NCBI GenBank assembly: GCA_051294375.1
Contig: CM119267.1
Span: 19,791,546 to 19,855,545 of the forward strand
DNA length: 64,000 bases
Direction of reading: 5' to 3'
Source: Paraspadella gotoi
Lineage: Eukaryota > Animalia > Chaetognatha
In this document: positions 1 through 63,570 of the stretch, one piece after another
Position numbering within the stretch: the first letter of the stretch is position 1
Layout: each line of letters starts with the position of its first letter
Position numbers and translations under genes: made by a program
The notes under the pieces: model-generated
What the model saw: only the letters and a program-made list of their open reading frames with translations
The model's database searches: none
What the model was told of the DNA's origin: nothing

Positions 1-57
1 CTTTTCCTCCCGCTTCCGCTTGAGCGGACGGTGTTCTTGAGAGAGGAAACTGGCCAT
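1..57 (-). CDS. Probable N-terminus of a further gene running off the window (MASFLSQEHRPLKRKREEK...)
   Basis: ATG at 57 in GAAATGGCC context, open to the window edge, GC-rich like other exons, NLS-like KRKR. Only 19 codons visible. Confidence 0.35.
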   Translation of the reverse strand, partial: MASFLSQEHRPLKRKREEK

Positions 58-800
58 TTCGATCAACGATTTTGTTTTGTTTTTTTCTTTTTGTTTAAGT
101 TTTAAGTTAATTTCTCGCAAATGTTTTTAACGTTAGTTTTATTTTTTTTTGGTTCCAGTTCCTCTTCCTCTTTCCACAGGAAGAAAGTGTCTCCTTCGCC
201 CGCGAAACGAACCGTGCCCGCCTTCAGAGGCAGATCGAATCGCAGGAGCCTCACATCGTCGACAACAAAATCAGTTTCTGTCTTTCGCCACTTATCTTCT
301 AAAGAGAACGTTACACAGGAGATTATATGTTTGTAAGAGTGAAAAGTCGCGGAGTTAGTCGTACATTGTATTTATTAATTGGGTTACAATCGCAATATTT
401 TTTTTTTGCTCACATCGCGGGAAATAAAACCTTTCTTTGGTCACGCTAGCGGGGGGTAGAGCGTATTATTACAGGCGACGGAGTTAAGGGGAGCTAACGG
501 GCCCGTCAATTGAATAATTAAACCAAAATGAAGAGGTACTTTCTCCGGAGTCCTACCCGCGAATCCGGCAAATCATGATTTTTTTTAAATTCGCAATGGA
601 GTTATTGCGCTAAGACACCCGCCATGAACGGACGAGGTTGATTGAAATACACACAAAAAAAAAAAACAACCTAAGACAAGGACGCTTTAATTCTCATCAA
701 ACCTAGCTAAGAGGAAAAAAAAAATAAAAACAAGTCAAACGAAATAAAAGTTAACTATTTCGAAAGAAAATTATCGTGAGAGATCTTCGAACAGAGGCTT

Positions 801-1652
801 TCATTTTTCCTCGCACCATTCGTTCTCCTTGCGAACCTACGAAGAAAAAAAGTAAACATTAGAAGCCTGGAAAAAGTAGTAAAATGCTAGGGTTAATTTG
901 ACACGTTTCCTATTCAATTATTCTATGCTACCTGCTCTTCTTCGGCCGGCGTAAAATCGTTCTTGATATTGAAGGTCTTCCTGATTTCTTCGGGGGTCTT
1001 CCCTTTGATCATGTTCGCCACCTGCAGAGCCGCGAAATCAACCGAATAAACATCGAGCAGAAATTTTCTACAATCTACAGTTGACTCACCGTTTTGCAAG
1101 TGACATCCAAAAGCCCCTTGATGTCGAGATAATTGGCGGCGAGGATGAGCTCGAAAAGAGTTCCCTGATCAACCTGAGAGACGGGAGAAAAGATATGAAG
1201 AGAAGTTCAATCGCACAACAATATAAAATAAAAAACCTACCTTGAGAAACTCGATGTCCCAGGACGGAATGTCATCAGTTCTCTTCTCCCGGTTGTCGTC
1301 GTCCTCGGGCGGGGGAGGATCGTCCTTGTGATAGGTGCACCATTGAATCACTTTCTGTTTCGGGGGGAAAGTAGAAAGGGAGGGGGAAATAATTAAATAG
1401 ACATTAAATCTTTCAGTTTTTTCTTCAAAATAAATCTTCATAAACTATGACAATCTTGTTTCGCCATTAGCCAAAAATCGAGTCAACCTTCAAGATAGCG
1501 GCGTTGACGTTGGGCAGCGGGATGGCCTCGTCATCCTCCTCGTCCATGCCGAGGTCTTCGAGCATCGTCTTGATGGTGACCGAAAGCTTGGCGATCTCCA
1601 CGTCCACCTCGAAAATCTCCCCGTCGGAGCTCTGGAGCTTGATGTTCGGCAT
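801..1652 (-). CDS. SKP1: S-phase kinase-associated protein 1 (5 exons: 1652-1488, 1354-1241, 1173-1090, 1021-932, 836-801)
   Basis: Spliced translation [22 protein letters not shown]...[23 protein letters not shown]...[51 protein letters not shown]...[11 protein letters not shown]. All introns GT-AG and in phase. Confidence 0.97.
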
Positions 1653-2431
1653 CTTTCGTTTTATTTCGTGCGCGAATCGCGATTTTATTAAAACTTTTTT
1701 AGTGTCTTGGAACAAAGGGAAGATTATTCCTGTGACGAGAGATGACTGAACACCAAGATTATCGGAGGATCTGAAATGGGGAGGTCAGACAGAAGTCAGT
1801 AGGAGACGGAGAGGGAATAAGGTGAAGTTAGGTTAAATTTTTTTTTTAAGTAGGCAATTGACAATTTTTTTCATTGCTTAGCAAATTAGCACTTAATAAA
1901 AAATATTCAAGCAATTTAAATTTACGCCCATAAAGTATAATTAACTTAATTTTAAAATCAAGTTCATAAATGTAAAAATCATAAAATTGAGACCGGTCAT
2001 AACAGCTTTTAGAGCAAAAACACACGTTGGGCGTGAGGGAGATAGTAAATAGGTTTAAGCAAAATATATACCAAGTGAAAATAATTTATAAGATATTAAA
2101 TAGGAAAAAAAAATATAGAAAAGTAACCGACACCAGAAAAATTACTTATGATAATTTAAATAAAAATGTTTTACTTCAGGAATTTCAGCTTAGTCTAACT
2201 TACATCTTCACCTTCAGACTCTATAAAACAGCAAAAATGATTAAGGACAGGAGCGAAGCAGTAAATATAAATATGGAAAAAATATATATATTACTATGAA
2301 AATGACTAGATAGATTGACGTTTTCAAATGCGACAAAGAATACTCTAAATTACAGACAGTCGTCAATGGTAGCAAAAACTAGTTATTTTTTGGTTTTTTT
2401 TTTTTTTAATATCGTGAGTTAAGATAGATAT

Positions 2432-5400
2432 TCAGTTTTTTCCGGCCCCGATCTGGCTCATCATAATTGTCATAACTTCTTCGAGCTTGAGCGCGGCGGA
2501 GGTGTCGCCGTTGACTTTGAGGTCGCCGCACATATAAGCGTGAAAGACGGAGAGTTCTCCTCGAAGGAGTTGAGGAAACCTAGACGCCGGTAGGGAGATG
2601 CAAGCGTCGGGGGAATTCGAAGGCAGCGGACCCTCACCCACGGAACCTAAAAAAGAAAATTAGGCTTGATGAGCGGGGTTTGAACGACGGACCACGACGA
2701 GAGTTTATGTCCAACAGGCTAATGACTGTGGCGGGTTCGGCTCAATCAATCGAAAAACTGTCCAGGTAAAAATAGAAAAGTTCACGCTAAACTTCGAAAA
2801 CTCACCCAATCCGTGTTTGAGATCCAAGAAAAAACGAAGCGAATCTCCGGACGGCCCCAGATCCTCCAAAGTAATCTCGTACGTGGATCCGATGCTGCGG
2901 ACGAGTTTCTCCGACAAGACGCCGCTCAGCACGCCGAGAAACAACCGCGTCAACTCCCTAATTTGAACGCCTTCCGATGACACCGGGGCTTGGCCGGAAG
3001 AGTCGACCTCCGTAACGTCCGGCTCCTTAGCTGGAATGGGAGGATTCACCACTTTCTTCGTCACAGCGACGGGGGTCCCACTTTCCACGCCCATCAATTT
3101 CGGCGCCAGTTGTTGAAAGATGGCGCTCATGCTGTCTGGAGCGGAGGAATTCCCTGTTCCGGCGGAGATTCCCGAGAGAAAATGGGCGAGTTGGCCGAAC
3201 CCCGGATGGCGGGACTCTTCCCTCGGCTCTTGCAGAACTTTGGGTTTGGAAATTAAGACTTGGCCCACTTCGCAGCCCCACTGGCAGCAGGTTTCGTTGA
3301 GGATCTTTTGCAGTTTGGATCCGAGAACCTTGAATTAGTTTTAGTGGAAGAAGATGAGAGTAAAAAAGGTGGCGAAGTTATGCAAAAGCATCCAGCAGAA
3401 ATGTTTAACCTGGCTATCATTCTGCAGCTCGTGAAGGGTAAGTGTAGATACGTTATTGATTAGCGTCGTTTTTGCGAGAGCGCGAATGGAGAGATCGAGG
3501 TCCTGAACGAAAAGCGTCGCCTGCAGAGGATCGCAGGTCCTAAAGTAGACGTCTGCTCCGATCTCCACCCCGGCACCGTCTTTGATTAAAACCGTTTGAG
3601 GCGGAACGAAAAATGCACGCATGCGCATATCGATGCGGTGATGCCTCGGAAGAAGGGAAAGGAAACGTATTTAAAACTAATCGTGTTGCTAATTATATTT
3701 AGGCAAAATTCGAATTTTGAGTCGAACCACAACTGACAAACAAAAGATTATTACACTGAGAAAAAATAAGTAAATAAAATAAAATAAAACAAAATAATAC
3801 ATTATTATGTATTATTAATCTTTAGTAAAATTTGACAAAAGAGTTGTTCTTTTTAAAAAAAAAAAACAAGTTATTCCGTATATAAATGATGAGACCATGA
3901 CTGTTCCCTCCGCACCGTCGTGTGCTGTTATCGAGCGAGATACGGCGAGAATCAGCTGAGCCGAATCAACTCATTAGATTTCGGTCACTCGTGGAAGCAA
4001 TCTTCCTCGGTCACTAAGAGGCGAGACCCGAGTCATTACATGACCACTGGTGAAAAAAGACCACCAGCGTGGAGACCCAAATAAGAATGTGTCCAATATC
4101 GACTATTTTCATTTACGTTTGTGCTCTTCATTTCTTCATTTATCTGAGCGGAATTTTTAAGATTTTTCTGGTCGGAGACCTCCAAGCAAAAGATACAGAA
4201 CAAATTCAAAGTAATAAAACAAGCGTCAGCGACGAAAGGTGAGTAGTAAAAATCATGAAAATCCCTTTTTTTCCTACTTTTAGTTAGATAAGGCAATTGA
4301 CTCCGAAACCAGTGACTGCGCCAATACATATAAACAGATCAAATTGATACACTACTAAAGTGCCTTTATTTTTAAATAAAAAATAGTATGAATTCATGTA
4401 CTAAATATTTAATTAATCCAAGTCAAACAAATTACAGGAATCAACAATCAATTAATCGGGCAAAAAGGAACCGTCAGAACCTTCTAGTCTCGCAACCTGC
4501 CATGGACGACTTAGAGCCAAGCATTGGGATCAACAACCACATCCTCCGCATTTCAAAGCAGAAGCTTAAGCCTAAAGTGAGCAAGGACAACCGCGCCAAG
4601 GGCGTCTCCAGGAGCCTCGAGAGGAGCATGCATGTCGTCGGTGTCATTCGAAAGGTCCATGCCGATCTCGCCAGCTATTTCTATCCGCCCTCGCCGGAAT
4701 TCGTGGCGATTCCAGAGGAGGCAATCGAAGAGGAGGCAATCGAAGAGGAGGCAATCGAAGAGGAGGCAATCGAAGAGGAGGCAATCGAAGAGGAGGCAAT
4801 CGAAGAGGAGGCAATCGAAGAGGAGGCAATCGAAGAGGAGGCAATCGAAGAGGAGGCAATCGAAGAGGAGGCAATCGAAGAGGAGGAGAAAAACGGCGAA
4901 ATCGAGAACGAAGGGTCGGAAAACGAGAGTGCCCTCATCGCGGCCGACGAATTTACGCGCTCCTCAGACGTTGTCATAAACCAGAGAAACGAGAAGGAAA
5001 AATATTCCTCCGCGAACGAGTCGAAGACCCCTCTCTCCGAACACGCCGCAAAAGAGTCAAAAACCCCTCGCTTCGAACAGGCCGCCGACGAGAACGAGAA
5101 CTTCGCGAGAAGTATCTCCAGGAACGGAACGACCGCGAATTCTCCAGAGGAATCGAGACGCTCTTCTCAGAATACTGTGGAAGAAGACCCGGCAATGTGC
5201 AAACCTGCATTGCTTAGGATTGAATAAATACCAATTGTAATTAGATTAGCTTCAGTTTGACCATCAACTCGCGAAAATTGCGCAATGCGCGCATATTTTG
5301 CCCACTGTATACGCGTCGTCGTAGTTACAATTTGTTATCGATTTCGTTTTGACGGAATCGAATTTTTTTTATTCCAGCATGTTAGTTACATATTTTCAGT

Positions 5401-8400
5401 TCTTAAGCAAGGAAACTAATAAAAAAAATTTTACCTCAAATTGTAAAAATTGTTTTCACTCACACGTCTATGCATGGTAGTAGGACGACTGGACCGGGGC
5501 CTTTGGGCTCCTGCATGCGGCCCAGTCGAAAGATGACGAGACGTTCATAGTTGGATATGATTTTGAGGCAGAAAAAGAGGGAAAGAGGAAAGGAGAAGAC
5601 GACGAGCATGTAGCAGGTGCAGACTACGCACCAGTTCACTGAATAAGGATATCATAAAGATTAAATATTTTCTAAAAACTGGTGATTAAAAAACAAGTTT
5701 GAGCAAACAATGTCGGATCTGCCTACGATAATTAAGTGGTTATAAGCTAACTTGGTCAACTTGCATAATTTAATCAACTTGCATTATTTGGTCAACTGGC
5801 ATAATTTTGTCAGCTGACATAATTTAACTGACAATTTGGTCAATTAGCATATTTTTGTCAATTGGCATAATTTGGTCGGTCAATCAATCAGAGAGAGAGA
5901 GTAACTTAAAAAAATTCAAATAAATGTGTCTTTTGGTTTTCTAATTTGAACTCTTTTCCACTCCTACGATTCCATCAAAAAATTTATATCCAGCTTCATC
6001 ACATACTTTCCTACCCACACACAAAATTTCATTTCAATTTATCTATCCAATTTTTAATAAATATGAGTAAATTTAAATAAATATGACTTTTGTTTTTTCC
6101 ATTTAAACCAATTTCCACTCGCACGATTCCATCAAAATTTCATACCAATCCATCCATCCAATCACGAGTAATTGAAGTTTTTTTGCTAAGGACGGACGGA
6201 CATCATTTTTTTTTAATTTATCATAATTCGAGGTTCTGATATGATAATGATTTACCGACAATATTTTGGGGTGGGACCGTCAGACCGTCAAAGTGAATTA
6301 TAGAGTCAGAATCTGCTGATAAGCAGATCCGACTAAAAACGTTTCAACTGGTGAACGTAACTAAAGGATACCGTAGAAAAATGTTAGGTCACTGTCCCTG
6401 AAAACAATTTTTAGTTTAAACTTTATTGAAGTAATCCTTTCTTTTTCGTTGTTACTATTAATTAGAGAATTGACAAAGTTTTTGTTTGCAACGAATTTTA
6501 TTTATAGTTGAACAGACATGTTTCGACTTGTTTTACAAGTCTTCATCAGCGTTTTGACAGAATGGTTTAAAATTTGTGCATAGAAGAAAGAGAGAAAGAG
6601 AGAGAGAAGAGAGAGAATAGGGTAAAAGTTTTCCAACAAAGTGGTGAGACAGAATAGTGGTCAGATGAGAGGACAGGTAAGGTGAGGACAGATTGAATAA
6701 GTTGTGAAAAGAAGTGAAACTTAGAGAGAGAGAGAGAGAGAGAGAGAGAACAGGGATAAATAATAATAAATGATACATTGTGCAATGTACAACAAAGATA
6801 AATGCTTTGAAACTAAAATTAGTAAAATTTAACAATTGTATAGTGGATAAATAGTTAAGGGATAGAAAGTGAAAAATGAAATGAAATTTGTGTGAAAAAT
6901 GAAATATGAGAATTTTAAGTGTTAAGTAAATGATTAAATGAAATTTAAGGAGTAAGAAAGAGCTCAAAATGAGCTGGCCCCCTTGGTTTATGCAAATGAA
7001 GGGCATGGACGATGGTGACGGGTCATTGGCGCGTCAGTGGCTGAGAGGAGAGTGCGACTGAACTGTAAATTCTGTACCGGGGATTGTACAGGCGGAAAAA
7101 TTCCCAATGCCACTCTTATGTCTCTCTGACCTGATACGCCTGCCGGCTGCCCTCTTCTCGCCTGCTGGCGAGGTGGGCGATTGTCTATTTTTGCCACTTT
7201 TGCGACAGGGATGATAGACTCCTCTCCTTCCTCCTGAAGCCGTCGTTTTGGGCGACGCTCAGTCCACAGAGAGAGGGACTGAGTTGCTGCATTAGAAGGA
7301 GTGGATCGTTTGCCCATTGCCTGCGTAAGGGTCTCCGCCTGTCTCTGTTGAGTGGAGACGGGGGAATCATTGTGCGGGCGTGGTGGGGGCGGGGCCTCCA
7401 CATATATTTTAGTTTCAAAGCATTTATCTTTGTTGTACATTGCACAATGTATCATTTATTATTTATTTATCCCTGTTCTCTCTTCTCTCTCTCTCTAAGT
7501 TTCACTTCTTTTCACAACTTATTCAATCTGTCCTCACCTTGACCTGTCCTCTCATCTGACCACTATTCTGTCTCACCACTTTGTTGGAAAACTTTTACCC
7601 TATTCTCTCTCTCTCTCTCTTTCTCTCTCTTCTTATGCACAAATTTTAAACCATTCTGTCAAAACGCTGATGAAGACTTGTAAAACAAGTCGAAACATGT
7701 CTGTTCAACTATAAATAAAATTCGTTGGCAAACAAAAACTTTGTCAATTCTCTAGTTTAAACTTTAAAGACTACAGAAGGCTTCTTATTATAAAATGTGG
7801 TACCCATTTTTTGTGACCAGAATCTGTTCCCACCAAACTACCGGATAGAATTTCATGAAATTTTACATTTAGAGTTCTAATGACAAAATAAATGGAATTA
7901 TCGAGTTGAATTTTAATATTGAACCCCTGGGGCTGGACCCCTGGGGGGCCAAAAAATGCTTAATTTTTTTTTTTCCATTTTTTAAAATTTTTTAGGAGAA
8001 TCAGGTTTATCGATGTTTTAAACAGAAATATTTTTTAAAACTAAAAATAAAAAAAATTTTGCTAATTAATCGGTGTTTGAAAATGCATGGTTCATCGTTT
8101 TTCTCCAAATTTTCCAGAATTATTCCAAATCTGACTTGAACAGCTGATGTTCATGAAGCTGAAACTTATGGTAAACTAATATTTTTGTGGAAAACAAAAA
8201 AAAAAAAACAAAAAAACAAATTGACTATTTTTTGCCCCCATGAGTGACCCCTACCGGGCTCCATATCTCACCTCAGGGGTCAAATGTTGAAATTCGCCTC
8301 GATATTTCTATTTGTATTCACATAAGGATCGTTCATACCAAATTTCATTAAAATCTATTCAATAGTTTTCTCGGAAGGTGTTCTGGTCACAAAAAAATGG

Positions 8401-10180
8401 TACCACATTTTATAATATGGAGCCTTTTGTAGATTGTAATCAATTTTTAGTCTGTATTATGAAGATATGAAAGGGTAAGACATGTAATTTAAGATAAAGC
8501 AGTTTTAACTGGCTATTAGGGTGGAGTGATGAAAAGATTGAATGATTGAACATTATTTTTTTGCTGCTTATGGACATAATTAAAACAAGTTTGAGCAAAC
8601 AATGTCGGATCTGCCCACAATCATTATCGGTAATTAATTATTAAATAATAAAAGTTAATTAATTAGGCAATTAATTTATTAATTTGATCCAAAATATTTG
8701 TTTTGATTAACTGATTAATTAATTATTGATTGACTAATTAATTAACTGATTATTTGATTAATTAATACATCTTGCATTTACATTTAAAGAAAAAGAAGCA
8801 TAGTCAATTAGTGAAACAGGTTCTTTGTTTTTTCCATTTAAACTCATTTCTACTCGAAAGATTCCATCGAAACTTGATTTCCAGTTTAATCACACACTTT
8901 TCTACCCAAATACAAAATTTTAAGTCAATCGCCCCATCCACTTATGAGTAATTGGTGTTCAAATAGTGAAATATATTTTTTTGTTTTATTTAATCTCATT
9001 TCCACTCGGACGATTCCATCAAAACTTCATATCCAGCTCAATCACACACTTTCCTACCCACACACAAAATTTCATTCCAATCCATCCATCCAATCACGAG
9101 TAATTGGTGTTTTTTGCTAAGGTAGGACGGATGGACATATGGACATCGTTTTTTTTTGTATAATTTTTTATAATTGTATAATGTTTTGACATAATATAAG
9201 TAAATGCCCGACAAAATGGAGGGGGCGGACCAAATGACCGACAAAGTGAATTATAGAGTCAGGATCTGCTGAGAGCAGATCCGACTAAAAATTTAAATCC
9301 TTTTAAATTTTTTTTAGCATAAAAGTAAATACAATTATTTATAAAGTAATATCCTTATAAAATCGTTAAATTTAAAAAAAAAGTTTTTTATTTTTAAGAA
9401 CAGATTTGGATTCGTTGTAAAAAACTAAAAAACTTTTATAAAATATATTATATGATATTTTAATGTTTGTATCGCAAAAAATGATTAAGACGTTTATATA
9501 AGTTTCTATTACAGAGAATAAAAAAATCATGAATTTTCATTTTTTTCCCCGTTTTAAACGCTGAAGATGACAGAAATTTTGATAACATGTTTTATATTTT
9601 TGATTCAACTTTTTATGAAAAATCTGAATCTCTATTAAAAGTTTTTAAAAAAAATATTTTAAAAATTTACTATTTTATAAAAATATTATTACAAATATAT
9701 TATATTTTACTATTCAGTTCCCGAGACAATATGAACAAAATATTTTTTATATGAGTTAATCATACTATTTTACAGTTAAATATCCTTTCTCGATCATTCG
9801 AATAAATTTTTTGTTCTTGCCTTAGCCAGTCAAATTCAAGTGACGAATCATTTATCGGCAAATGCTTAATTTATTGAACCATTGATTTTTAAAGTAGACC
9901 GTTTGCTTTCAATTGAATTATATACCCTCCCTAATGACATCGGCTCGTCTCACTCGAATGTAAAGAAAGCAAAAATCATTGCAGAAAACTCACTACCTGC
10001 GATGTCACAAAAAGATCGAGAATGCTCCCACTCTCCAGCTTCACCATGTCGGAAACCGCTTTCTACTCCATAGTTTTTTGACCACCGCTGCGATTGACTT
10101 GCAGAGTTATAGGAAAATATTGATTTGTAGCTGATCGGCTGAACAGGGTTCAGTTTGGCGTATTTTGTGATGCTAGTCAT
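2432..10180 (-). CDS. STOML1: Stomatin-like protein 1 (SPFH/band-7 plus C-terminal SCP2 sterol-binding domain); exons ~10180-9997, 5638-5464, 3644-3410, 3328-2806, 2646-2432
   Basis: Hydrophobic segment then YERLVIFRLGRMQEPKGPGPVVLLPCID, RAFFVPPQTVLIKDGAGVEIGADVYFR; C-terminal AYMCGDLKVNGDTSAALKLEEV (SCP2). Splice phases join in frame. Confidence 0.9.
4502..5227 (+). CDS. Putative acidic low-complexity protein nested antisense in STOML1 intron 2 (ORF open from 4388; likely ATG 4502)
   Basis: 279-aa ORF, GCCATGG context at 4502, 11x EEAIE, codon-aligned 12-aa duplication, AATAAA overlapping the stop. No recognisable family. Confidence 0.4.
   Translation: MDDLEPSIGINNHILRISKQKLKPKVSKDNRAKGVSRSLERSMHVVGVIRKVHADLASYFYPPSPEFVAIPEEAIEEEAIEEEAIEEEAIEEEAIEEEAIEEEAIEEEAIEEEAIEEEAIEEEAIEEEEKNGEIENEGSENESALIAADEFTRSSDVVINQRNEKEKYSSANESKTPLSEHAAKESKTPRFEQAADENENFARSISRNGTTANSPEESRRSSQNTVEEDPAMCKPALLRIE
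4715..4879 (+). repeat. Perfect 15-bp tandem repeat (GAGGAGGCAATCGAA) x11
   Basis: Read directly from the sequence. Confidence 0.97.
5693..6335. mobile_element. Non-autonomous Helentron/DINE-1-like element, family A copy 1
   Basis: Begins ACAAGTTTGAGCAAACAATGTCGGATCTGCC. Ends with hairpin ATCTGCTGATAAGCAGAT followed by CCGACTA; subterminal IR GTCGGATCTGC/GCAGATCCGAC. GGAC microsatellite and A-run flanks. Same ends at 8585-9287 and 28865-32006. Confidence 0.75.
6511..6553 (-). ncRNA. Minimal type I hammerhead ribozyme (copy 1)
   Basis: Minus strand reads AACG-CTGATGA-A-GACTTG-TAAAA-CAAGTC-GAAA-CATG-TC-TGTT: conserved core, 6-bp stem II, palindromic stem III, stem I AACG/TGTT. Confidence 0.85.
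7663..7705 (+). ncRNA. Minimal type I hammerhead ribozyme (copy 2)
   Basis: Identical motif on the plus strand: CTGATGA 7667-7673, GAAA 7692-7695, predicted cleavage after C7701. Confidence 0.85.
7771..8432. mobile_element. MITE, probably Tc1/mariner-derived
   Basis: Imperfect TIRs of ~50 bp (CTACAGAAGGCTTCTTATTATAAAATGTGGTACC...GTGACCAGAA / TTCTGGTCAC...GGTACCACATTTTATAATATGGAGCCTTTTGTAG), TA at both ends, non-coding interior. Confidence 0.75.
8585..9287. mobile_element. Helentron/DINE-1-like family A copy 2
   Basis: Same 5' end as 5693; 3' GGATCTGCTGAGAGCAGATCCGACTA; shared internal CACACACTTTCCTACCCACACACAAAATTTC blocks. Confidence 0.75.
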
Positions 10181-24291: not shown

Positions 24292-24294
24292 TCT

Positions 24295-32006: not shown

Positions 32007-32298
32007 AAAATGGTAGCACCAACGCAACCCCATACATTAAATTCCACAACTTTTTGTCAAAGGATAAATATACGATTCCCCTTCCCCTCAAAAATTGCAA
32101 TAAAAACATTTAATAAAATGTTTCATTAAAATTTTCGAAAATAAGAATTACCGACAGAACTTAATGAAAAAGGAACTTCAACTTGTATTGGTTTAGGTCA
32201 AATATTAATAATTATTAAATGGTTTCGACTTTCACTTATTTTTCATATACGAAGATCTTTAGATAAAATCGACAGATTCTTAGGAGACCTATTCCGCT

Positions 32299-44255: not shown

Positions 44256-44576
44256 TTATTGTTCCATTTCAGGCTCTGCCCTTTGTTTTTCTCCTTCGTC
44301 ATTCGCTTTCTCAACTCCCTCGTTATTCCCTTCCTTTTCATTCTCTTCGCTCTTCTCCGTCCTTTCCTCTTCATTCTCCTTCGTCTTCCCGTTCTCTTCG
44401 TCCTTCTTCGCGCCCGAAGCCGCGGCTTCGTCGCCAAGGGACGCCAATCGCTCTTCCATGCGTCGAATCAAGTCCTGCTGCTTGCGAATCATGTCGTCCA
44501 CCATGTCGCGTTGCATCTCGGTCGTTTGGAGAACGGCCTGCAACTCCTCGTGGGACAATCTAGGTTGCGACGACAT
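44256..44576 (-). CDS. Small hypothetical coiled-coil/acidic protein (106 aa)
   Basis: GCCATG start, exon-like GC content between AT-rich flanks, amphipathic helix then E/K-rich tail. No family recognised. Confidence 0.55.
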   Translation of the reverse strand: MSSQPRLSHEELQAVLQTTEMQRDMVDDMIRKQQDLIRRMEERLASLGDEAAASGAKKDEENGKTKENEEERTEKSEENEKEGNNEGVEKANDEGEKQRAEPEMEQ

Positions 44577-50085: not shown

Positions 50086-51147
50086 TCACAGATTCTCGAC
50101 TCTTCTCGTCTTCTTTCTCCTAATCAAGGGTTTTTCGTCTTTGGGCAAGGCAGATCGAGAGACTTCGTCGCCGTCGTCAACGCCCCGATCGAATCGAGCC
50201 AAGATGTCGCCGTAGATTTGGTCCGTCTCCTCGCGCGTCACCGAATTGCGGTATTGCAGGACGAGGTCGTACTTCTCCCACACTTTTCGCCTTCCGGGTT
50301 CCGTCAGTTTGAATCGTTCCATCTGGTCGAGATTAGCGAGAATCGTTTCCTGGTCGATGCCGCGGAATCCCATGTTCTGCCACTTTTGGGTCCAGGGGCG
50401 TGGCTTCATCTTGACCAAGAGGTCGTTGACGGGCACCTCCTCGGAAGAACCTCGCGGAATAGGCTTCATGTCCATCGGGACCGTGCTGTACTCGGGCAGG
50501 GCGTCTCGGAGGTAGTACATCTCGTCGTCGAGTCGACGCTCCAACTTGAGGACGACGATCTCGCGAATCATGGGATTATAAAGTTCGTACATGATCTCGA
50601 TACCTTGCTCGTCGACGACGTTGCGGAGGACGAAGCGATGGCGAAGACCGGGGTCGCCCTTGGCGATGCATATCCCGATGAACTTGGACAGTTTGGTTGG
50701 CGAATAAGGGTCAGCCACGGTCACCGACAAGATGGACCCCACGTAAAACTCGGGGATTTTCATGACGGCGCGGCGTTTTAAGAGGTCGACCCGCTCCAAC
50801 GATTCGCGAACCGAGTCACGGTGTCCCCAGTAAGTCGTCGGCACGAATTCGGGCATGGTGTACATGAGTCGATCCACTTTAGTTTCTGGTGGAGGTCGGT
50901 TCGGGTCGGAGGGAAGAGTCGTTTGCGAGGATTCCAGCTTCTCATCGACGGGACCGTCGAGTCCCTTCCCTCTTTCCCATTCTTTTTCGCGCTTACGATG
51001 ATACTCTGCGAAAATTGGACTGACGGAGCTGGAACGTCTCGTCGACGAAATCCGAGGGATCGAAGAGATCGGGACAATGTCGAATCGTTTTAAGAAGGAA
51101 AACTTGGAATTGAAAGAACAGGCGCGAAGACAGCAAGGCAGCGCCAT
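50086..51147 (-). CDS. MRPL19: Mitochondrial ribosomal protein L19 (bL19m), intronless
   Basis: PEFYVGSILSVTVADPY, FIGICI, FVLRNVVDEQGIEIMYELYNP, LERRLDDEMYYLRDALPEYST, KMKPRPW; basic N-terminal presequence. Confidence 0.93.
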   Translation of the reverse strand: MALPCCLRACSFNSKFSFLKRFDIVPISSIPRISSTRRSSSVSPIFAEYHRKREKEWERGKGLDGPVDEKLESSQTTLPSDPNRPPPETKVDRLMYTMPEFVPTTYWGHRDSVRESLERVDLLKRRAVMKIPEFYVGSILSVTVADPYSPTKLSKFIGICIAKGDPGLRHRFVLRNVVDEQGIEIMYELYNPMIREIVVLKLERRLDDEMYYLRDALPEYSTVPMDMKPIPRGSSEEVPVNDLLVKMKPRPWTQKWQNMGFRGIDQETILANLDQMERFKLTEPGRRKVWEKYDLVLQYRNSVTREETDQIYGDILARFDRGVDDGDEVSRSALPKDEKPLIRRKKTRRVENL

Positions 51148-51285: not shown

Positions 51286-54041
51286 TTAACCGTCGTAAAA
51301 TCTCGGACCCCGCTCCCTGTCATTCTTCGTATGAAGTCTCCATGGCCTTCCCAATAATGCCGCCATTCCTTTCTCAAATGCGGTGAGTGCATCGTTTTTC
51401 GGCGGTTTATGAAGTTTGTCGCGAAAGAATACGAGGCGTTTCCAAATTGTTTTTCTGATGCGAACGACGATCTTGACGAAATGAAGACTGACCGTCGAAT
51501 CGAGCACAATATGCGTCAGATGCCGACATTCCCGAATGACTTTGACCGTGTCCGCTAACAGCGTCATCTTGTCCCGTCTTAGCGGAGAGGACGAAAATAT
51601 TCGGCTTAGACGAGATCTTGTTTGGTCCCAGTCCAAAATTCCCCACATCAAAACAGTAAAAAAGATAACATTACCCATTCTCGTCGATTAGTTCACAATG
51701 CACGTCCAAGCGCGTCAATGTCTGACCCCAAGCGAGAGCAATGCAACGGAGCGCGTAAAGCGTCGCCACGGCACCAGGAAGCCATTGGCAAGAATCAACA
51801 GGTACTTTGGGGTGAAACATAACTCTTCGTTCGCTGAACTTGGTAAAATCGAAAAATTCCACAAACGTTAACGTCACTTTCAAGGTTGAATTCGTTACAA
51901 AGATCTATTGCCATAGTCATATATTTTTTATAATATGCGACATTTTAGTAACATCTTGACCGTTATATGTATTCCATAATAAAAATACCTTTGGTTTTAC
52001 GGCTAAAAAACCTAACAATTCAAGCTATTTAAAGATTAAAAACGAATCTTTGCATCGAAATCAGACCCCGCAGGTAAGGCAATTTATCGGCCAGTGATTG
52101 CCAATAAGCTCCAGGCGGCAAACCGGAAGTTTGAAATGAGTCCCAACCATTCCAAGACGCTCTAAGGATAAGCCGCACTCTCTCCAACGTTCCTCTCCCC
52201 AACATCGAACAATAGTGAGGATCAAGAAAGAATCGATCGTCCGTGTAAGCCGACAAGGATAGTCGAAGTTCCATGAGATTAGTGAGACAATCGACCAGAT
52301 GAAACTCCCGGTTCGCTTGGGTGGTGTAAAGGGTGTGGCCGGAAGAAAATTCTTCCTCGCTCCACACCCACTGGTGACTCATGATACACCAATCAGATCG
52401 CCCGATGGACCAAAACTCTGGGTCTTCAAAATCAAACCAAAAGATTGAGAGTGTTCGGAGATTTTGTATCAAGTCGGTATTGCATTGGATCGCCAGAAGG
52501 GGATCAGTGGTTGACAAATCTGTCGAGGCGTAGTGAGCTTGCATTTCCGAGTAACTGTGACGACAAAGACTTAAAAATATACAATTAAGTTTGAAAAATG
52601 CTTTGAAAAAAATAGTGAAATTTAAGAAGCTCTTTCGGTATTTGTCGTCATAGTCACGTTTGCTCTATTATGGTGTCATCTTGCAATCTCGGCCACTTTA
52701 CAAGGTTTATCTCTTTGCAAGTGTCATCCAGGGCTTCGATGAGTTGAGCCACGCGGTCCAGCGCCGCTTCCGACCTCCTTAAGGGGTAATAACTTGAATG
52801 CCAAACTTCCTCTATGGCAAATGTGAACGAACGAACGCCTTGAAAAAGGTGAGCCTAATGAAGCCACTAAATCCAGTGTTCAATAAATCTCGATTTTTCT
52901 GGCTAAAAAATAAATTTATTTTTTTCTTTCTTCTGATTTTCTTTCACCTTGTTTTTAATTTGATTTTTTTTTTTGAAAATTCCATTTTATAATATTCTAT
53001 ATTTTTCTTAAATACATCATCGCAGGAGTATCAAAGCTATCAAAACCAAAATCGGATCGGATACTCCCTGCGATGATAATTATATTATGCGCGAAAGTAA
53101 TGTCTCGAGGCGACTAAAATTTCCCTGTGGGCAATGAATAATGCAATAACTTCACAAATACCTCGACATCGCTTTTGAGTTATGAGAGCGGAAAGAAGGA
53201 AGTCGAAGGGGAGTTCGAACATGTGTTTCCGCAGCAAGTATACGACTAATATTTTGGGAACATTCGCTGGCGACATAGGCGGAAAGAAATCAAGCAGCCT
53301 GTCCCGAAACTGGGGAGGCACGGACCTCGCGAGAAGGAGCTCCCCAGCACCCGCAGACAGCGTAGTCAAGTGATCGGGACGACGGGCTATCAAACGAACC
53401 TGACGCCACAACGACGGCGACGAAAGCGCTGTATGGGCTTCGATCGTCTGCTGGCGCAATTGCGAAAGGACTGGACGTGCGGATAAGGGCATGAAACAAA
53501 GGGACGCGTTCGGAATTGACTAATTTGGTCTTTACTATATAGTTTAAGTAAAACAATGCTTTAAAAAAGTTCAATGATTACAACTAAGAATTATTTTTTA
53601 AAAATTTATTATTTAATTTAATTTATTTTTAATTACGCTCGGCCAATTAATGATATATAACTTATTAGAGAATTAGAGTAAAGCGAATAAAAAGTATTTC
53701 AGAACGCGACCCTCACCTGAATAAAGACTTAACCGCTCTGCGATCGACAGATATGAAAAGATTGTTTCCAGCACTTCGTAAGGTAAAGAACTAAAAACAT
53801 TCCCGGTGACTTGGTCAGTCTCATCCGACAATCGAGAAAATAATGACCTTGGCGATAAAGACGAATCAGAGGACACGGCCGCGATGAGATTTGACTGGGA
53901 ATTTTCGGGCAGCGAAGTGACTCCGCCGGATGACGAGGAACGATCTGTCTCCGTCAGGGAGGAGTTGGACGTGTCCAAGGACCGTTTGTCCCGACCTGGA
54001 CAAACGTATGCGTCATCGCAAATTTTTCTCCGCTTCGACAT
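51286..54041 (-). CDS. F-box protein with LRR-like C-terminal region; internal exon structure only partly resolved
   Basis: FSSLPYEVLETIFSYLSIAERL spliced to ...ALSSPSLWRQV; downstream segments LRTLSI, LMELRLSL, CRHLTHIVL. Phase of one junction near 52555-52700 unclear. Confidence 0.65.
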
Positions 54042-54262: not shown

Positions 54263-55298
<1,036 letters not shown>

Positions 55299-55550: not shown

Positions 55551-58500
55551 TCACAAAACTTCGAAGGTAAACTTGGGTCCCTCTTCCTCGCTCTTTCTTT
55601 CTTCTTTCTTCTCCTTTCCTCTCAACTCTCTGTTTCTCTTCTTTCTCTCATCCTTCGACTTTTGTTTCTTCCTCCTTTTCTCTTTCGTCCGCGCATTGTC
55701 CCTCGCCGCCGTCACGACCGGATTCGAAGGTTTCAATCGATGAAGTTTTTCGATTTCCGTTTTCGCAACTCGGACGGCGTCGGCATCGGAGTCCGTCGAG
55801 GTCGTCAGAGAGGGTAAGTTCAAGCAGCCCTCTTTGGTAAGGTATCGACCCGAAAAGCCAATGGGAAAGATTGGCTTGGAGAGAAGGTCTTTCAGGCGTG
55901 ATTTCAGGCTCTAGAAGTAGAATAAAGTTAAGCTATGTAACTCAAACATACCGAATCATCTTGTTATAACCATATGATAAAAATCTTAAAAGCATAAGGA
56001 TCGTCGCAATTGTATAAAAAATATACATATGGACCCATAACAAACTTTGACACTCAAAAAATCAATTTTGATAAAGGAAAACTATGTTTTATATATAAAT
56101 CTATTAAAAAAGAGAGAAAGAAAGGAGAAAAGAGGGAAAAAAAGCCCCTGCAGAGCCAGCTGCAGACTCATTTTTTTCCCAATATATCAGCCTGGGGAAA
56201 GAGAGAGAGAGCTACATAATACATATAATTAAAATTTAATCATCAAAAAGGCGATCTATAAATTGGAACGCCGACGACAACGACTACGCCACTTATGCGC
56301 AAAAGCAAGATCGTCGCAAGATCGTCGCAAATGCAAAGCGATTGCGACGATAAAAACAAAGGTACCTTGAGTTCCCTCAGCATGAGATTTCTCTGATGCC
56401 TGGCGTCGTTCCTCGCTTCCTCGTCCCCCTTATTTTTTCTCTTTTTCGATGAAGCCCCGATTTCGTCGTCATCGGCGGCCACGATGTGATTTTCGGCCAG
56501 ATCGAATTCAAGCTCAGCCTCTTTGGCCTGAGTTTCGAACCATTCAATGTCCCGAAACTCTTTCTTCATGCGATGCTCGGCGCGGTCGATGTCCTGGGCC
56601 AGCTGCACTCGTCGTTTAATTCCGGGCAGAAACTTGGACTCGATGGGAAATAAGGGCAGATGCTCTGACTGAGGTAAAAATAGCATTACAAATGTCACTT
56701 CCGGGCGGAAACGTTTAAAGTAAGTTGTAAGTAACAAACCTTGTTTAAGTTATTACAAATTCGATGATAAAGCGTCGTTTCCTGAGGACCGACGAGCACG
56801 ACCGAAACGCCCTCATTGTTTGCGCGCGCCGTCCTGCCGCTTCTATGAATATACGTTTCTGAAGTACGAGGTACTTGATAATGCACAACGTGTTGAACGT
56901 TGGGAATATCAAGACCCCTCGCGGCGACGTCCGACGTCATAAGAAGAGCCTTCTCGCGAGCGGCGAATCGGTCCACGTTTTTCAGCCGTTGTCTTTGCTC
57001 CATGGAAGCATGGAGAGGAAGAGGCTCGCACTCGAGCAACGAGAAGAGCGAGACCAAGCGCCGGATGCAATCGATGCTATTGCAAAAGACCATCGTGCGC
57101 CCGGGAAATTGTTTGAGAAAGTAAAACAAGTACACGTCCTTTTCCTCCACGGCGCAGTTAATCCTGCATTTAAAAAAAAAAAAATTAATCACAAATAAAC
57201 GTAATTTTATTCCCTCAAAATTAAACCTAGTTTCAACGACGTTTTCTGCAGTGCCTTCCTTTCGAGACAAGTCGACGATGGCGGGTTTCTTACGAAGTCC
57301 GATCTCTTTGATTAACTTATCCAGCTTAAGGTCTACCGTCATGTCGATGCGCTTCTTGATTGATCGCCGAGGACCGGAATGGACAAAAGTTAAAGTGGCG
57401 GAGAAAATTAAAGTTTGCCGCTTTTTGTCCCCCTATAGAAATAATAAGAATAATTATTGAGGGAATACGTGGAAATGCTGACTCTTGTTTTCAACTATCT
57501 AAATTTAATACCTTATTCATGTGATTAATAATAGAGGACAGCTCTTGGAAGTGACCCCTCTCAATCATCCGGTCCGCTTCGTCGATGACCAGCATGTCGC
57601 AATAACGAATGGCGTCAAGATGTGGCTCAGCTTGCATCATCTCCCACAATCTTCCAGGCGTCGCAATGATGATTTCTGGTTTACGCTAAGTTTTAAGAAA
57701 CGATTTAAACCTCCTTACTTCAAAAATATATATAAAAAAAAACTAACTTTTAAGAGACGCGTCTGCTTTTCTTGTGCCATTCCCCCAACGACTGTAATCA
57801 CGTTGACGTCGCAATATTTGGCGGCGTCTTTTATGTGTTTGGCGACTTGCAAAGCCAATTCGCGCGTCGGCGTCAGCACCAGAGCGATAGGTGGATTGTC
57901 GTTTTCTTGGACTTTCGTCGATTCACTTTCGTCAAATACATCATTATCCTCAACCATCGTTTCGTCGCGTCCTTTCTCATCGACTTCCATCGCTTCCTCG
58001 CCCTCGACTTGTTCCTCCCCGGACGGGTCATTATCGATCGCGCTATACTTCGCCTCTAAATCATCTAAAAATGTTTGATATTTCTTCTCTATCTCCAAAT
58101 GCGATTTTATTTGCGTCCCGCCCATGTTCTTCATAAAGTCGAGAAGGGCGACGCTCGAAATTTGGGCTGAACCCGGATCTTCGCAGTCACTCTCTTCGCA
58201 CTGACTCGACGTGATCAAACTTTCGTCCTCAGTCGAATCTTTCTCTTCTTCTCCATCTCCGCCGACCACGAACGTGCTCAAATCCGTAATTTCTTCGATC
58301 TGCAACTCTTCGTCGTCGTCGTCGTCATCTTCAAAGAATCGATCCTCTATCTCATTACCTTCCCCGAATCCTTTTTTCCGTAAAGCGTGCGCGAGAATAG
58401 GGATTCCAAAACAAAGCGTCTTTCCGCTTCCGGTCTCGGCGGCTCCTATAACGTCGCGCCCATCCCTCACGGCCGGCGGTAAGGTCAGCGCTTGAATGGG

Positions 58501-59392
58501 CGTTGGTGCCGTAAAACCGAGCTCTTCCAAGGCGCGCATAACGGGCGGCGGAACGAAAAGGTCTTTCCACGCGCTGGCGTCTCGCGAAATGACGGTCGGC
58601 GCTTCAGAAGTAATTGAGTCCGTCGTATTTTTGAAGATTTTTTTCGACAACTTAGTCTTCGTTTTCCGATTTTTTTCTTTTTGCAGTTTCCGCTGATTAT
58701 CTTTATCACCACTCTTCTCCGTCTTTTCGTCCGATCCATCATCTCGAACGGCTTCGCCCTCTTCCCCAACTTCCGCCGCTGCTTTCTGAGCCTTCAATCT
58801 TCGCCTCTCCCTCTTGCTCAAGGCAGCCCGGCGCCGCTTCGAACCCAATCTCTTTTTCCGTTCGCCGTCGTTAACTTGACGACCCTCGTCGGACACCGCG
58901 GTTTCGATGACGGGACGAAGGGAGGATTGCGGCGAAGGTTGGTTGAGATCCTCTACTTTTGATGCCGCGTTGGAAATCAATTTTCCGCCAGTTTTAATTT
59001 TCTTTGTCTTGATGCGAGACTCGTTTTTCCTCGCCACCTCACTGCCGATTTTTTTTATTTTCGTCGTCGGTTCCTTTTGCTTTTGTTGCGCCGATTTCGT
59101 GACAAGCTATTCAGGAATGTGAAGGGAAGATGAAATTTATTAATTAAAAATCCATATAATACGTTTACATTAACCCTCCTTGAACCTTTTTTCTCTTTAT
59201 CTCTCCTCCCGAAGACGCTAGGTCGTAGTCGAGTAACTCTTCAATGAGAGTCACGCCTCCTTCGCCGAAGTCTCTTAACTGATTCAGATCAATTTCCAAT
59301 GAGGCCCAGTTTCCGCGCTCCACGAGACGCTTTTGCCCCGCGGAAGGGGCGCGCGGATGTTCCGCGGAGCATTCGCTAATTAGTTCCGTCAT
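55551..59392 (-). CDS. DDX24: DEAD-box RNA helicase DDX24/Mak5, multi-exon
   Basis: [16 protein letters not shown], long acidic insert, [56 protein letters not shown]. Confidence 0.92.
55982..56351. mobile_element. Short HINE-like family B copy in a DDX24 intron
   Basis: Both termini present: ATCTTAAAAGCATAAGGATCGTCGCAATTG ... ATCGTCGCAAATGCAAAGCGATTGCGACGAT. Confidence 0.75.
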
Positions 59393-59660: not shown

Positions 59661-61391
59661 CTACGACGTCGCGGTCTTGCCGTCCTTCTTCATGTGGCCC
59701 ATGAAGTTCTTCTTCTCCTCGTGGGTCTGGAAACGGCCGTGACCAAACTTGGAGGTGGTGTCGATGAGGGTCAGGTTGATGTTTTCGGTCGCGACCCTCT
59801 TCGTCTGCGGGATGAGCGACTTCCTCAGATTGAGAACGCGCTTCCTGATTCCGATGCAGGAACCTGGGTCCATCGAAAATGGATGAATGTAGTTTCCCGG
59901 GTTATCGGTTTGGTAGAATTCCAATGTATGTACGTGACAATCTAGCATTCTACATACCCTTAATCATGACGAAATCCTCCTTGACCATTCCGTAGTGAGG
60001 AAATCCTCCCATGGGATTGATTGACTTTTCGGTGATATCTTGCTCAGTGGTAGCGTTGTTCTGGACTACCTTGCCGTCCTTGGTTTTGAAGCCTTCGCCG
60101 ATGCGGTAGATCTTCTTGTTAATCTCCGTACGATGATGATATCCCTTTTGTCCGACGCGCGCCACCGAGTAGGCGACGCGAGAAGGATGCCAAGCTCCGA
60201 TACAAGCCACCTGTTAAAATACAGAATTTACAGACGGCCAATATTTGTTTTTGCAATTCGTGTGCTCGTTAGCTCCACAATACATTTTAATACGTATATA
60301 TAAAGCGAAACATATTTTCTAAGACATCAATATTGACAATAGTTACAAATGACGTACCTTTCGAAGTCCCTTATGGGTCTTGCGTGGCAGCTTCTTCACG
60401 TGCCAGCGGCCGACGACGCCTTTGACGCCGTGACCTTTGGTGACGCCGATGATGTCGATCATTTCGTCCTTAGCGAAGACATCCGTAATCGGGACAGTTT
60501 TTTCCATAAGGCCGCGGGCAAAATCGACCTTATTAAAAAAAAATTACTTGCGATTTATCAATCTTTATTTGGCTACTAGTCACCAGGCGACAGTCTAGTA
60601 GACAGAACAATCACAAAATTGAGGCTCTGTACCTTTTCCGGGATGGTGCCGCCGTTAACTTGGATTTCGTGAATATGCGCCTTCTTTTGGCGCTTGCGTA
60701 AAAGCTTAATCTGTGATAACATTTGAAAATATATAGTCGACAACTTTCTCTTTCAACCATCTACATAGATAGCTACAAATAGCTTTTAAAAAACATGCAC
60801 AAAGATTTGAGTCACCTGCGTGTGGGTGATGACCCGGATGACCTTGCAGTATTTCTTCATTTTAGCGAAGTCCTTTTCGATCTCCTTCTTGCCGTCCTCG
60901 GCAGACCACTTTTTGGTGTACTTGGTGAAGGCCTTTTTCTTAGACTTGTACCAATTCTTGTAAAACCTCCGGCGGCAATCCTCGGACAGGTGCTCAGCCC
61001 ACACGGTCTTGAAGGTTCTCATACCGTGCGGCGTCTCGATGTAACTTAATGGAACGAAATCGATCATTAGGACATTGAGATTGCACTTCTGAACTAATAT
61101 GAGCATTGAGAAAACGTACCCAACAACGCCGACGACCATGATGGGAGGCGTCTCGATTATGGTAACCGGTTCAACTACTTCTTTCTTGTTAACCTTTGAC
61201 CCAGGACGATCGACCAGACGGCAGACGTGGGTCATTCCAGCCTTGTACCCAGTGAAGGCCGTCAAATGAACCGGCTTCTTTGGGTCATCCTTGGGAAAGG
61301 ACTTAATTCTCCCCTTGTGGTTCTTGCATCGCTTCTTCGGCAGGAATCCCAAATTCCCGTGACGAGGCGCAGAAAATTTACGATGAGACAT
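59661..61391 (-). CDS. RPL3: 60S ribosomal protein L3 (uL3), multi-exon
   Basis: [69 protein letters not shown]. Confidence 0.98.
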
Positions 61392-61445: not shown

Positions 61446-61532
61446 GGGAAAACTAAATTGCAATTGTAAATTATTGCGTTAATAAAATAAACGAAACAGA
61501 ATGAAATAAAACAATGCTCGAGAATCAAAATG

Positions 61533-63064
61533 CTAAGAGGACCAGGTTATTTCTATTCTTGAAACTGTCTGGTCGAGACACCCGACGACGATGCCGCAAG
61601 TCTTTTCTTTAGCAGGTGCCTCGTAAGGCACCAAGGAACAAACCCAGGCGCTGGTCGGTTGCGATGCTACAAGGCGCCCTCCGTGGTAAAGGTGGACGCG
61701 ATCAAAGTTTCCCGCGGCGACGAGGGCGTCGTGGATTCGCGTCGCCGGGGCCAACGATCCCGAGGAGACGCGGGCGGAGGATGATGATGATGATGATGAA
61801 CGGCGGCGACCGATAGCGCTGAAGTAGGAGGTTCCAGAGTTTGACACAGGAAGCGTTAAAAGCTTAGTGATGCAGTGGTCTCCCTTCACGAAGGATTGAC
61901 GAACAACTTCAAAATTCTCCATGATGTAGATGGCGCCATTTTCACAGCCCAGGGCTAAATAAAAAGCAAGGAAATAATAATCCGGGTCGTCTTAAACCCA
62001 AATCTTATGGCCAATATTCCATACCTATTTGTAAGCCCGATCTAGCGTCGCCCGTTGCGGCCCAAGGCGTCCCGGCCGCTCGCGACGGCTCGTCGTAAGA
62101 GACGTAGTTTCCTACTGCCATTGCGTTTACGATGGAAGGCGCGTGCGTCGCGAAAACGATTCGCCCTTGATTTATCACGTGCACCCGAGCGACGCTGTCG
62201 GCGACCAAAACGTAGGTGGCTTGAGATTCGGCGCTCGTCGGCAAGACGAACGAAGAGATGCAAGTGACGGCCGCCGAGGAGACCGACCCGAACGTCGGCG
62301 TCTGAAAATATACTTCCGTAATTTAATATAATTTTGAAAATGTTATATAAATTATTAGCCTGGAAACCTAACCTCGAGCAAGTTAAGTCGCCATAACTCC
62401 TTGGAAGGTTGAACCCCCGCTACGAGACCGGCGTCTCCACCGACGATGAGCGAAACAGTTCCGTCCAAGTCCTAACATTAGAATTCAAGTTTATCCCTGC
62501 CGCGCCGATCGCGAATGAGAATTAAGAAAGCCGACCTCCGAAACTTCGAGACAGTCGAGCGACTCATTGGAGAGCGAGAGTCTAGACAAAATTTGTCCGT
62601 TGCAAAAAATGGTGAGAAGACCACGCGAGTCACAGGTGATTACGTCTTTCGCGTGAACTTTGGTAACGTCGTGAACGACCATGGCCTAGAAATCGTTATT
62701 TTTTTATATTTACAAATAATGGGTTATAAGTGAATTAGTCGCCATTAGGCATAATTAAATATTTAAAAATAAGTCATAAACGTGGAAACTTATTAACTGG
62801 TAAATACTATTATTACGCCACCTGTAGGGCGTCGCCTTTCGTTTCGTGTTCGGCGACGAGCTTTAAATGGTTCGACGTCGCCGTCGTCCTGGCGACATTC
62901 GAAGTCCCAATCTCGTACACGTAGACTTTTCCATCCTCAGCGGCAACGGCTAAACTAAGACCACGATGCCGAAAGATGGCGTCCACTGCGACGCAGTTAA
63001 AGGCGTGGGGAAGTTTTTGAGTCCAAAGAACTGAAAAGCGTGCCTCGAGTTCTTTGAACAACAT
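61533..63064 (-). CDS. Uncharacterised beta-propeller-like protein (~5 exons)
   Basis: In-frame GT-AG exons giving beta-strand repeats LAVAAEDGKVYVY, VITCDSRGLLTIF, LIVGGDAGLV, VLVADSVARVHVI, ALGCENGAIYIM, IVVGCLDQTV. Confidence 0.7.
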
Positions 63065-63241
63065 TGCCACGACTACAAAGACAAAATATTTTCCTCTACT
63101 GAGGAAAGGAGCTCTGTGAAACAGGAAGCCTAAATTTTAAAACATTTCAAATGTTACAGCTTTTACTAAATAATTTTCATTTTAACAAAACAAAAGTTTT
63201 CATAATTAGTCGACGAATAAAGGACCATCAATCGTTTTAGC

Positions 63242-63570
63242 CTATGAAGCCGGGGTGGCGGCGGCGGCGGCGACGGCGGCGAGACGGGCAGCTTTCTCGG
63301 CCCATTGTCTCTCGTTCTGAGCGCGAACCTAAATGAAACAAAACAAGTAGAAAACCAAACTCTCACTGGCTTCCGATCTTGTACAAAGAAAACTTCACCA
63401 ACCTTCTTCTTTCCGAGCTTGTTGTTTTTCTTGGAAAATCTGAGGTTCCTCAAAAATTTACGATCCATCCCATCCTGGCTGGAATGACGATGGGTTTTGG
63501 GCTTCTTGATGCCGTTCCTGTGGTTCTTACGGTTCTGATTGTGGTGAGAATAATTCTTCGACTTGGCCAT
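63242..63570 (-). CDS. RPL29: 60S ribosomal protein L29 (eL29); exons 63570-63403 and 63328-63242
   Basis: [24 protein letters not shown]...[17 protein letters not shown]; second exon [27 protein letters not shown]. Confidence 0.95.

Follow-up and report, generated by a model that had tools for sequence, protein, structure and literature searches.

Twenty-one head-to-tail genes on one strand of a 64-kb animal locus, probably transcribed as several spliced-leader-resolved operons

Operons whose polycistronic transcripts are resolved by spliced leader (SL) trans-splicing have been documented in chaetognaths, where they hold metabolic and ribosomal genes (Piovani et al., 2025, PMC12460157; Marletaz et al., 2008, PMC2481426), and a review counts Spadella among the operon-bearing animals (PMC2776167); here and below, published figures are those given in the accessible parts of the papers cited. 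In Paraspadella gotoi, 1,470 operons were validated under a 250-bp rule, the longest having nine genes, among which are ribosomal, ubiquitin and proteasome ones (PMC12460157), and the accessible text of both chaetognath studies reports no operon-specific leader (PMC12460157, PMC2481426). Tunicate operons reach 11 genes (PMC4122922), those of Oikopleura having been called at 500 bp (PMC11067885), and in Ciona the upstream 3' end lay immediately next to the acceptor in 19 of 19 cases (PMC1488885; Satou et al., 2006). The locus described here is a 64,000-nucleotide (nt) stretch of animal DNA, referred to as the window, with introns that are mostly short and of the GT-AG type, on the minus strand of which 21 unrelated genes lie head to tail over 64 kb. 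The run probably consists of SL-resolved operons forming several units, one of them of at least nine genes, a judgement that includes cases in which a single unit for the whole run holds in part only. Since SL-resolved operons are already known from chaetognaths, it is the size of this one, and not its kind, that may be new.

Two of the 21 genes are clipped by the window edges, and the run is open at both edges, no strand switch being reached. From the upper end of the window (position 64,000) downwards, the stop-to-start spacers measure 189 bp (eIF3h to RPL29), 177, 141, 268, 252, 221, 138, 184, 435, 524, 975, 308, 3997, 105, 114, 295, 1467, 709, 779 and 743 bp (SKP1 to a frame opening at position 57), with a median of 282 bp; 12 of the 20 are 310 bp or shorter and seven exceed 500 bp. 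An initial annotation of the locus had described 19–20 head-to-tail genes and listed 18 of these spacers, all of which were reproduced; the 189-bp and 743-bp spacers were added, and the gene count rises to 21 with the 3' end of eIF3h at the upper edge, which had been missed. Consecutive genes can be joined into a cluster of nine with a spacer limit of 310 bp, of ten at 500 bp and of 13 at 1000 bp. A Pfam search of all stop-to-stop frames of 70 amino acids (aa) or more on both strands gave families for 17 genes among the 138 minus-strand frames, together with eIF3h_C at the upper edge, and none of the 134 plus-strand frames reached a family cut-off, two of them standing at E ~0.01. No family is assigned to two of the genes, one of 106 aa and the other represented by the frame at 57-1, which is only 19 codons long. 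All 847 of 847 tblastn high-scoring segment pairs from 273 proteins also fell on the minus strand, which is a weak check as the proteins had been fetched with minus-strand queries.

If orientations were independent, 21 genes on the same strand would have a probability of 9.5e-7, and a run of this length is expected 0.01 times in a 21,072-gene genome lacking operons. When the operon frequencies of Paraspadella are spread evenly, the expectation rises to 0.06–0.12 per genome, so that such a run would be rare but not impossible; the window is also one selected among many.

The identity of the animal was approached through RPL3 (59661..61391, minus strand; 401 aa, five introns; Pfam PF00297, RNA joints and a tree), as the initial annotation had advised. 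The spliced protein has 90–93% identity to an unnamed cluster, and its identity to RPL3 of named animals does not exceed 77%. A scan of metagenome contigs gave 80 loci, the closest two of which (L001 and L002) are RPL3 mRNAs sharing 365/401 and 364/401 residues with the window protein (91% identity). The first 26 and 27 bases of these two mRNAs are the 3' part of the chaetognath leader SL2.0 (PMC2481426, Table 3), which is the commonest leader of Spadella and is also present in Flaccisagitta (PMC2481426). In a 34-row, single-gene tree, built from a chosen subset of 151 proteins (no named chaetognath among them) plus the window and the two loci, the window RPL3 falls in a seven-row clade with both mRNAs at a support of 100/98. 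RPL3 is therefore trans-spliced in close relatives, and the grouping very likely places the source animal among the chaetognaths, and so in a lineage with SL trans-splicing. The leader lies 40 and 51 nt from the start codon in the relatives' mRNAs, and a distance of 33 nt is predicted for RPL3 of the window. The other 78 of the 80 loci have no leader at their start; one of them (L003) has an internal near-match, which was taken as chance. No genomic copy of the leader was found in the window, where the best match is 19/27, and an Rfam search over the window gave no matches, with no SL RNA or small nucleolar RNA gene at gathering score. Placement with tunicates, arthropods or nematodes was considered and is unsupported, the RPL3 and DDX31 searches having returned no close named animal.

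Of seven sequencing runs, none of them recorded as RNA, five contain the stretch. RNA evidence comes from assembled contigs of these five, of which X1, X2, X3 and X5 were aligned on 46900-64000 and X1, X3, X4 and X5 on 58900-64000; it covers nine of the 21 genes and eight of the 20 spacers, all above 46900, and contigs of this kind cannot show where an RNA starts. X1, X3, X4 and X5 were judged to be RNA by their spliced joints and not by their records, and X1 was taken as such because its contigs are near letter-perfect to the window and skip every intron listed. Three spliced X1 contigs run unbroken through seven of the eight spacers (eIF3h-RPL29, RPL29-propeller, propeller-RPL3, DDX24-RPS5, RPS5-F-box, F-box-MRPL19 and MRPL19-SNU13). 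In the remaining spacer, RPL3-DDX24, both contigs break off where a run of T is masked (59562-59597). Missing cover in X3–X5 was not counted as evidence. No splice joint lies inside any spacer among the joints listed (all 12 over 58900-64000, and all but 43 of those on 46900-64000), and the acceptor-like AGs in these spacers therefore do not look like the ends of introns in 5' untranslated regions (UTRs).

At one junction the contigs also locate an upstream 3' end. RPL29 (63242..63570, minus strand) is an 84-aa gene with one intron, spliced in four RNA runs, and matches Pfam PF01779; it is followed by the third gene, a beta-propeller gene (61533..63064, minus strand; 396 aa, four introns, defined by RNA joints and an open spliced frame). 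The RPL29 contig of X3 carries 11 non-templated A at 63113 and that of X4 ends at the same base. A predicted acceptor AG ends at 63114, 49 nt before the ATG of the beta-propeller gene, so that the RPL29 poly(A) site and the predicted trans-splice acceptor of the third gene coincide at 63113..63116 (minus strand). This AG ranks first of the nine in the spacer under a matrix built from 16 RNA-shown acceptors, and is the predicted site of leader addition. At the one junction of one with a visible tail, then, the upstream poly(A) site sits on the downstream predicted acceptor, leaving 0–1 nt of intercistronic DNA, and no AATAAA or ATTAAA was found within 60 nt upstream of the poly(A) site. Because the two sites coincide, the trans-splicing cut probably makes the RPL29 3' end itself, as has been proposed for Ciona operons.

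Taken with the clade of leader-bearing mRNAs, the tight spacing and the seven crossed spacers of eight, this zero-length junction argues for operons. A single polycistronic unit is likely to take in the upper nine or ten genes, with the others making up one to a few further units. From a promoter beyond the upper edge of the window, RNA polymerase II would transcribe eIF3h, RPL29, the beta-propeller gene, RPL3, DDX24, RPS5, the F-box gene, MRPL19 and SNU13, and probably also the 106-aa gene. Cis introns would be removed from this transcript, as observed in the contigs, and trans-splicing would add a 36-nt leader at an AG just ahead of every start codon, as in the RPL3 mRNAs of the relatives. 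Breaks between units, in the form of internal promoters or long outrons, would be expected from length at the 3997-, 1467- and 975-bp spacers, the first of which is the most likely. The proposal that the locus comprises one or a few long polycistronic units is thus supported by the leader-clade taxon, the lack of intercistronic DNA at one junction and the crossed spacers, but a single unit for all genes is not demonstrated, as the RNA evidence covers eight of the 20 junctions and seven spacers exceed 500 bp.

Several observations weigh against operons. In Paraspadella, trans-splicing affects roughly half of the genes and only 18% are operonic, so that trans-splicing alone does not make an operon (PMC12460157). 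A contig that spans two genes is not proof of a single transcript molecule. No leader was found on contigs of the organism itself, X1 having no loose end over 58900-64000 and none of 24 of the 363 loose ends on 46900-64000, most of them at repeats, carrying one. The zero-length junction is single, was noticed after the fact, has a chance probability of 1–10% and comes from two runs of one study; a simple acceptor filter gave no candidate in six of the 20 spacers, and 7-mers like the ETS motif, a common promoter element, are present in five of the 20 by raw count. The spacer patterns counted were poly(A), ETS-like and donor-like only, and no shared spacer motif was established.

The ETS-like motifs and the excess of trans-spliced over operonic genes in Paraspadella would also agree with most genes having promoters of their own, in a spacer or in the last exon of the gene upstream, and being trans-spliced singly, with their co-orientation avoiding collisions or arising by chance. 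The bridging contigs could in that case stem from read-through or from trace DNA. We nevertheless regard this arrangement as decidedly unlikely: no intergenic DNA separates RPL29 from the beta-propeller gene, spacers of 105–300 bp would have to house both UTRs, no contig over 58900-64000 contains an intron, and chance orientation hardly ever yields 21 genes in a row without operons, as calculated above.

At the other extreme, the entire run of at least 21 genes and more than 64 kb may be one polycistronic unit, its larger spacers representing long 3' UTRs, introns within 5' UTRs and an inserted repeat in place of promoters. When the 12 tight junctions are counted as operonic, the remaining eight, all above 310 bp, are still all co-directional (P 0.004 if independent), which suggests that several of these are probably operonic as well. 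Donor-like sites, which could begin 5' UTR introns, were found in seven of the eight larger spacers, the run is open at both edges, and a 3145-nt X1 contig would by its length reach ~43930, through SNU13 and the 106-aa gene. Co-direction across the three spacers above 800 bp has a P of only 0.125, however, and requires no explanation; the 3997-bp spacer is roomy enough for a promoter, RNA coverage ends at 46900, and the longest published operons have nine genes in Paraspadella and 11 in tunicates. A single unit therefore seems rather unlikely, and several operons remain the preferred reading.

A directional gene cluster like those of kinetoplastids had been proposed alongside operons; the genome would then be organised in such clusters, with constitutive read-through of all genes on a strand. 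Kinetoplastid clusters are likewise long same-strand runs of unrelated genes, and the present run is open at both ends and longer than Paraspadella operon frequencies predict. The genes here differ from those of kinetoplastid clusters in having many cis introns and in the company of a likely nested gene on the opposite strand. This putative gene lies at 4087-5227 on the plus strand, in intron 2 of STOML1, and would have two exons and encode ~318 aa. Its main frame has the top coding score among 80 frames of at least 60 aa outside the minus-strand genes, holds twelve copies of an acidic 15-bp repeat, and joins in frame, across a GT-AG intron with a strong donor, to an upstream exon encoding a hydrophobic, signal-peptide-like N-terminus; database matches were obtained only through the acidic repeat, with no homolog beyond it. 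Its presence leaves the run uninterrupted and shows that the region is nonetheless not strictly one-stranded. The claim that all recognisable genes are on the minus strand therefore stands for the 21 genes of the run but not for this likely nested gene. As Paraspadella has in addition ordinary peaks in the assay for transposase-accessible chromatin and only 18% operonic genes (PMC12460157), the initial annotation's kinetoplastid-like alternative is very improbable.

Repeats are distributed unevenly over the locus. In a self-BLAST comparison, within-window repeats occupied 4757 bp inside five gene spans and none of 19 of the 20 spacers, the other being the 3997-bp spacer (28302..32298), which has repeat blocks in common with STOML1 intron 1. 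This restriction to introns and one spacer suggests that selection keeps the other spacers short. The repeat blocks of the 3997-bp spacer (28858-31991) do span the 3.1 kb previously assigned to one transposon; only 1044 bp of this, however, are shared with other repeats of the window, and that one element is involved is not demonstrated. One dispersed family was located in introns of CBL, BAG6, SNU13 and DDX24 (11560-11647, 35074-35571, 40169-41061, 45516-45598, 46358-46758, 49315-49752 and 55979-56356), parts of it being very deep in X1 contigs, and a second family is shared by STOML1 intron 1 and the 3997-bp spacer. A GC-richer insert in STOML1 intron 1 (6536-7930), which may be what is left of a mobile element, has an inverted repeat and, on the minus strand, a frame of 155 codons with a modest coding score. 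Within SNU13 intron 1, degenerate telomere-like short repeats occupy ~45760-45940, and at 47100-47270 the X1 depth is in the thousands with many variant contigs; the latter segment, which has no Rfam match, may be the head of a tRNA-derived repeat.

A 10-N assembly gap at 46798..46807, together with the repeat blocks of one spacer and of several introns, raises the question of whether pieces of the run were joined wrongly during assembly. This is scarcely credible, given that the gap lies inside SNU13 intron 1 and the exons flanking it, which have GT-AG ends, can be spliced in frame to give an intact protein of 127 aa, that the domains of BAG6 appear in order across its repeat-filled introns, and that RNA contigs match the genomic order over 49792-64000.

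The genes are functionally mixed; all those that follow are on the minus strand and are given from the upper end down. The labels DDX24, SNU13, CHID1, DCXR, APEX2, METTL10 and STOML1 are those which we presume from domain content. The first gene is the 3' end of eIF3h (63760..64000), which runs off the window, matches Pfam eIF3h_C on both exon pieces and has an intron spliced in X1, X3, X4 and X5. RPL29 comes next, followed by the beta-propeller gene, described as BBS/ITFG2-like from ESM Atlas feature matches of 0.88–0.94 to BBS1/2/7/9 and ITFG2 clusters, which are a lead only. Below RPL3 lie a DDX24-like DEAD-box helicase (55551..59392; Pfam DEAD and Helicase_C, X1 contig) and RPS5 (54263..55298; Pfam PF00177, RNA joints). 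At 54260-54560, X3 and X5 each carry two RPS5 contigs, one identical and the other divergent and of greater depth; the latter may stem from a second species or from a paralog, such as have been reported for ribosomal proteins of chaetognaths. X2, a small-share run, also holds divergent contigs. The F-box gene (51286..54041; Pfam F-box) has only unnamed relatives, two homolog clusters at 57–58% that align to its last codon. It is followed by the intronless gene for mitochondrial ribosomal protein L19 (MRPL19; 50086..51147; Pfam PF01245, X1 contig) and the SNU13-labelled L7Ae gene (45012..49901; 127 aa, Pfam L7Ae), with a 4.3-kb first intron containing repeats.

The 106-aa acidic open reading frame (44256..44576), inside the tight cluster, has a clear coding bias of 0.72 bits per codon despite having no Pfam or ESM Atlas match. 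Next is a CHID1-like GH18-domain gene with an intronless coding sequence (42592..43731; Pfam PF00704), before which an ETS-like motif at 43939-43946 and a donor-like site at 43828 could represent an internal promoter followed by an intron in the 5' UTR. BAG6 (33321..41616; Pfam ubiquitin, BAG6 and Bag6_BAGS) and a DCXR-like short-chain dehydrogenase (32299..33012; Pfam adh_short) precede the 3997-bp spacer. Below the spacer are an APEX2-like AP endonuclease with a GRF zinc finger (26614..28301; Pfam Exo_endo_phos and Zn_ribbon_GRF), the intronless DDX31 (24406..26508; Pfam and named homologs, the searches giving one unnamed match at 60% and named matches at 37–44%), a METTL10/EEF1AKMT2-like methyltransferase (23468..24291; Pfam Methyltransf_31) and a KIF21 kinesin (16656..23172; Pfam Kinesin, KIF21A and WD40). 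The lower end holds the E3 ligase CBL (10890..15188; Pfam Cbl_N, N2, N3 and RING), a STOML1-like gene with Band7 and SCP2 domains (2432..10180; ~443 aa, Pfam matches and an open spliced model), SKP1 (801..1652; Pfam Skp1 and Skp1_POZ) and the start of a further reading frame, recognised from sequence only, of which 19 codons remain before it runs off the window (1..57).

By itself the tight cluster matches or exceeds the Paraspadella maximum of nine genes, and the whole run is about twice the 11-gene tunicate maximum. Were the run a single unit after all, it would exceed 21 genes and 64 kb, with largely zero-length junctions in a repeat-rich animal genome, and much of the housekeeping gene set of this chaetognath would be transcribed in giant units. 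Operon calls based on distance thresholds would split such arrays at long UTRs or repeat insertions, so that the sizes given for animal operons may be too low. In addition, the array offers a test case for a question raised by Ciona, namely how the upstream 3' end is formed when the poly(A) site is also the next splice acceptor, and bears on how an abundant ribosomal protein mRNA and that of a functionally different neighbor can arise from one transcript. In a literature search outside which most subscription papers lay, no animal operon of more than 11 genes and no report of this array was found. The accessible text of a Flaccisagitta genome preprint (10.1101/2025.03.14.643333) makes no mention of operons, nor does the term occur in that of a Spadella preprint (10.1101/2025.01.31.635879). 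Six gene labels of the array are absent from three PDF supplements of the Paraspadella survey, the operon table not being among these.

Compared with the described systems, the locus has two traits of SL-resolved operons, namely short-spaced genes on the same strand and a lineage with SL trans-splicing, and a zero-spacer junction of the Ciona and Spadella type was found once; the features of the C. elegans SL2-type operon were not found. C. elegans uses a dedicated SL2 for its operons with a spacing of ~100 nt, in contrast to the 0–1 nt at the one junction mapped here. Like Oikopleura dioica and Caenorhabditis elegans, the animal would place housekeeping genes in leader-resolved polycistronic units (PMC4122922, PMC11067885, PMC2776167), although the intercistronic DNA of those species is 23–30 or ~100 nt in compact genomes, whereas the array here has repeat-filled introns of several kb. 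The RPL29 junction resembles those of Ciona intestinalis operons in that the upstream 3' end lies directly at the downstream acceptor AG (PMC1488885). Ciona nevertheless belongs to another phylum with a different leader, its operons mostly have two genes and up to seven (PMC7986045), and its ribosomal protein genes mostly avoid trans-splicing, while the array here holds three cytosolic ones.

Two further comparisons are with chaetognaths. In the RPS14-PCNA operon of Spadella cephaloptera the poly(A) site of a ribosomal protein gene likewise abuts the next acceptor (Marletaz et al., 2008, PMC2481426), and the leader family is shared, being present here on the RPL3 mRNAs of the relatives; the Spadella operon has two genes and a 3-base gap, compared with 0–1 base at the RPL29 junction and a far longer run. 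With the operons of Paraspadella, very likely of the same phylum, the array has in common the head-to-tail order, the short spacers and a mixture of functions in which ribosomal and protein-metabolism genes are prominent, and the fact that leaders there are not specific to operon position (PMC12460157) is counted as a further likeness. Against the nine-gene maximum of that survey under its 250-bp rule, the present locus, which may overlap that very operon, has nine genes with stop-to-start spacers of up to 310 bp, ten if the limit is 500 bp, and 21 in the same direction, the run being open at both ends.

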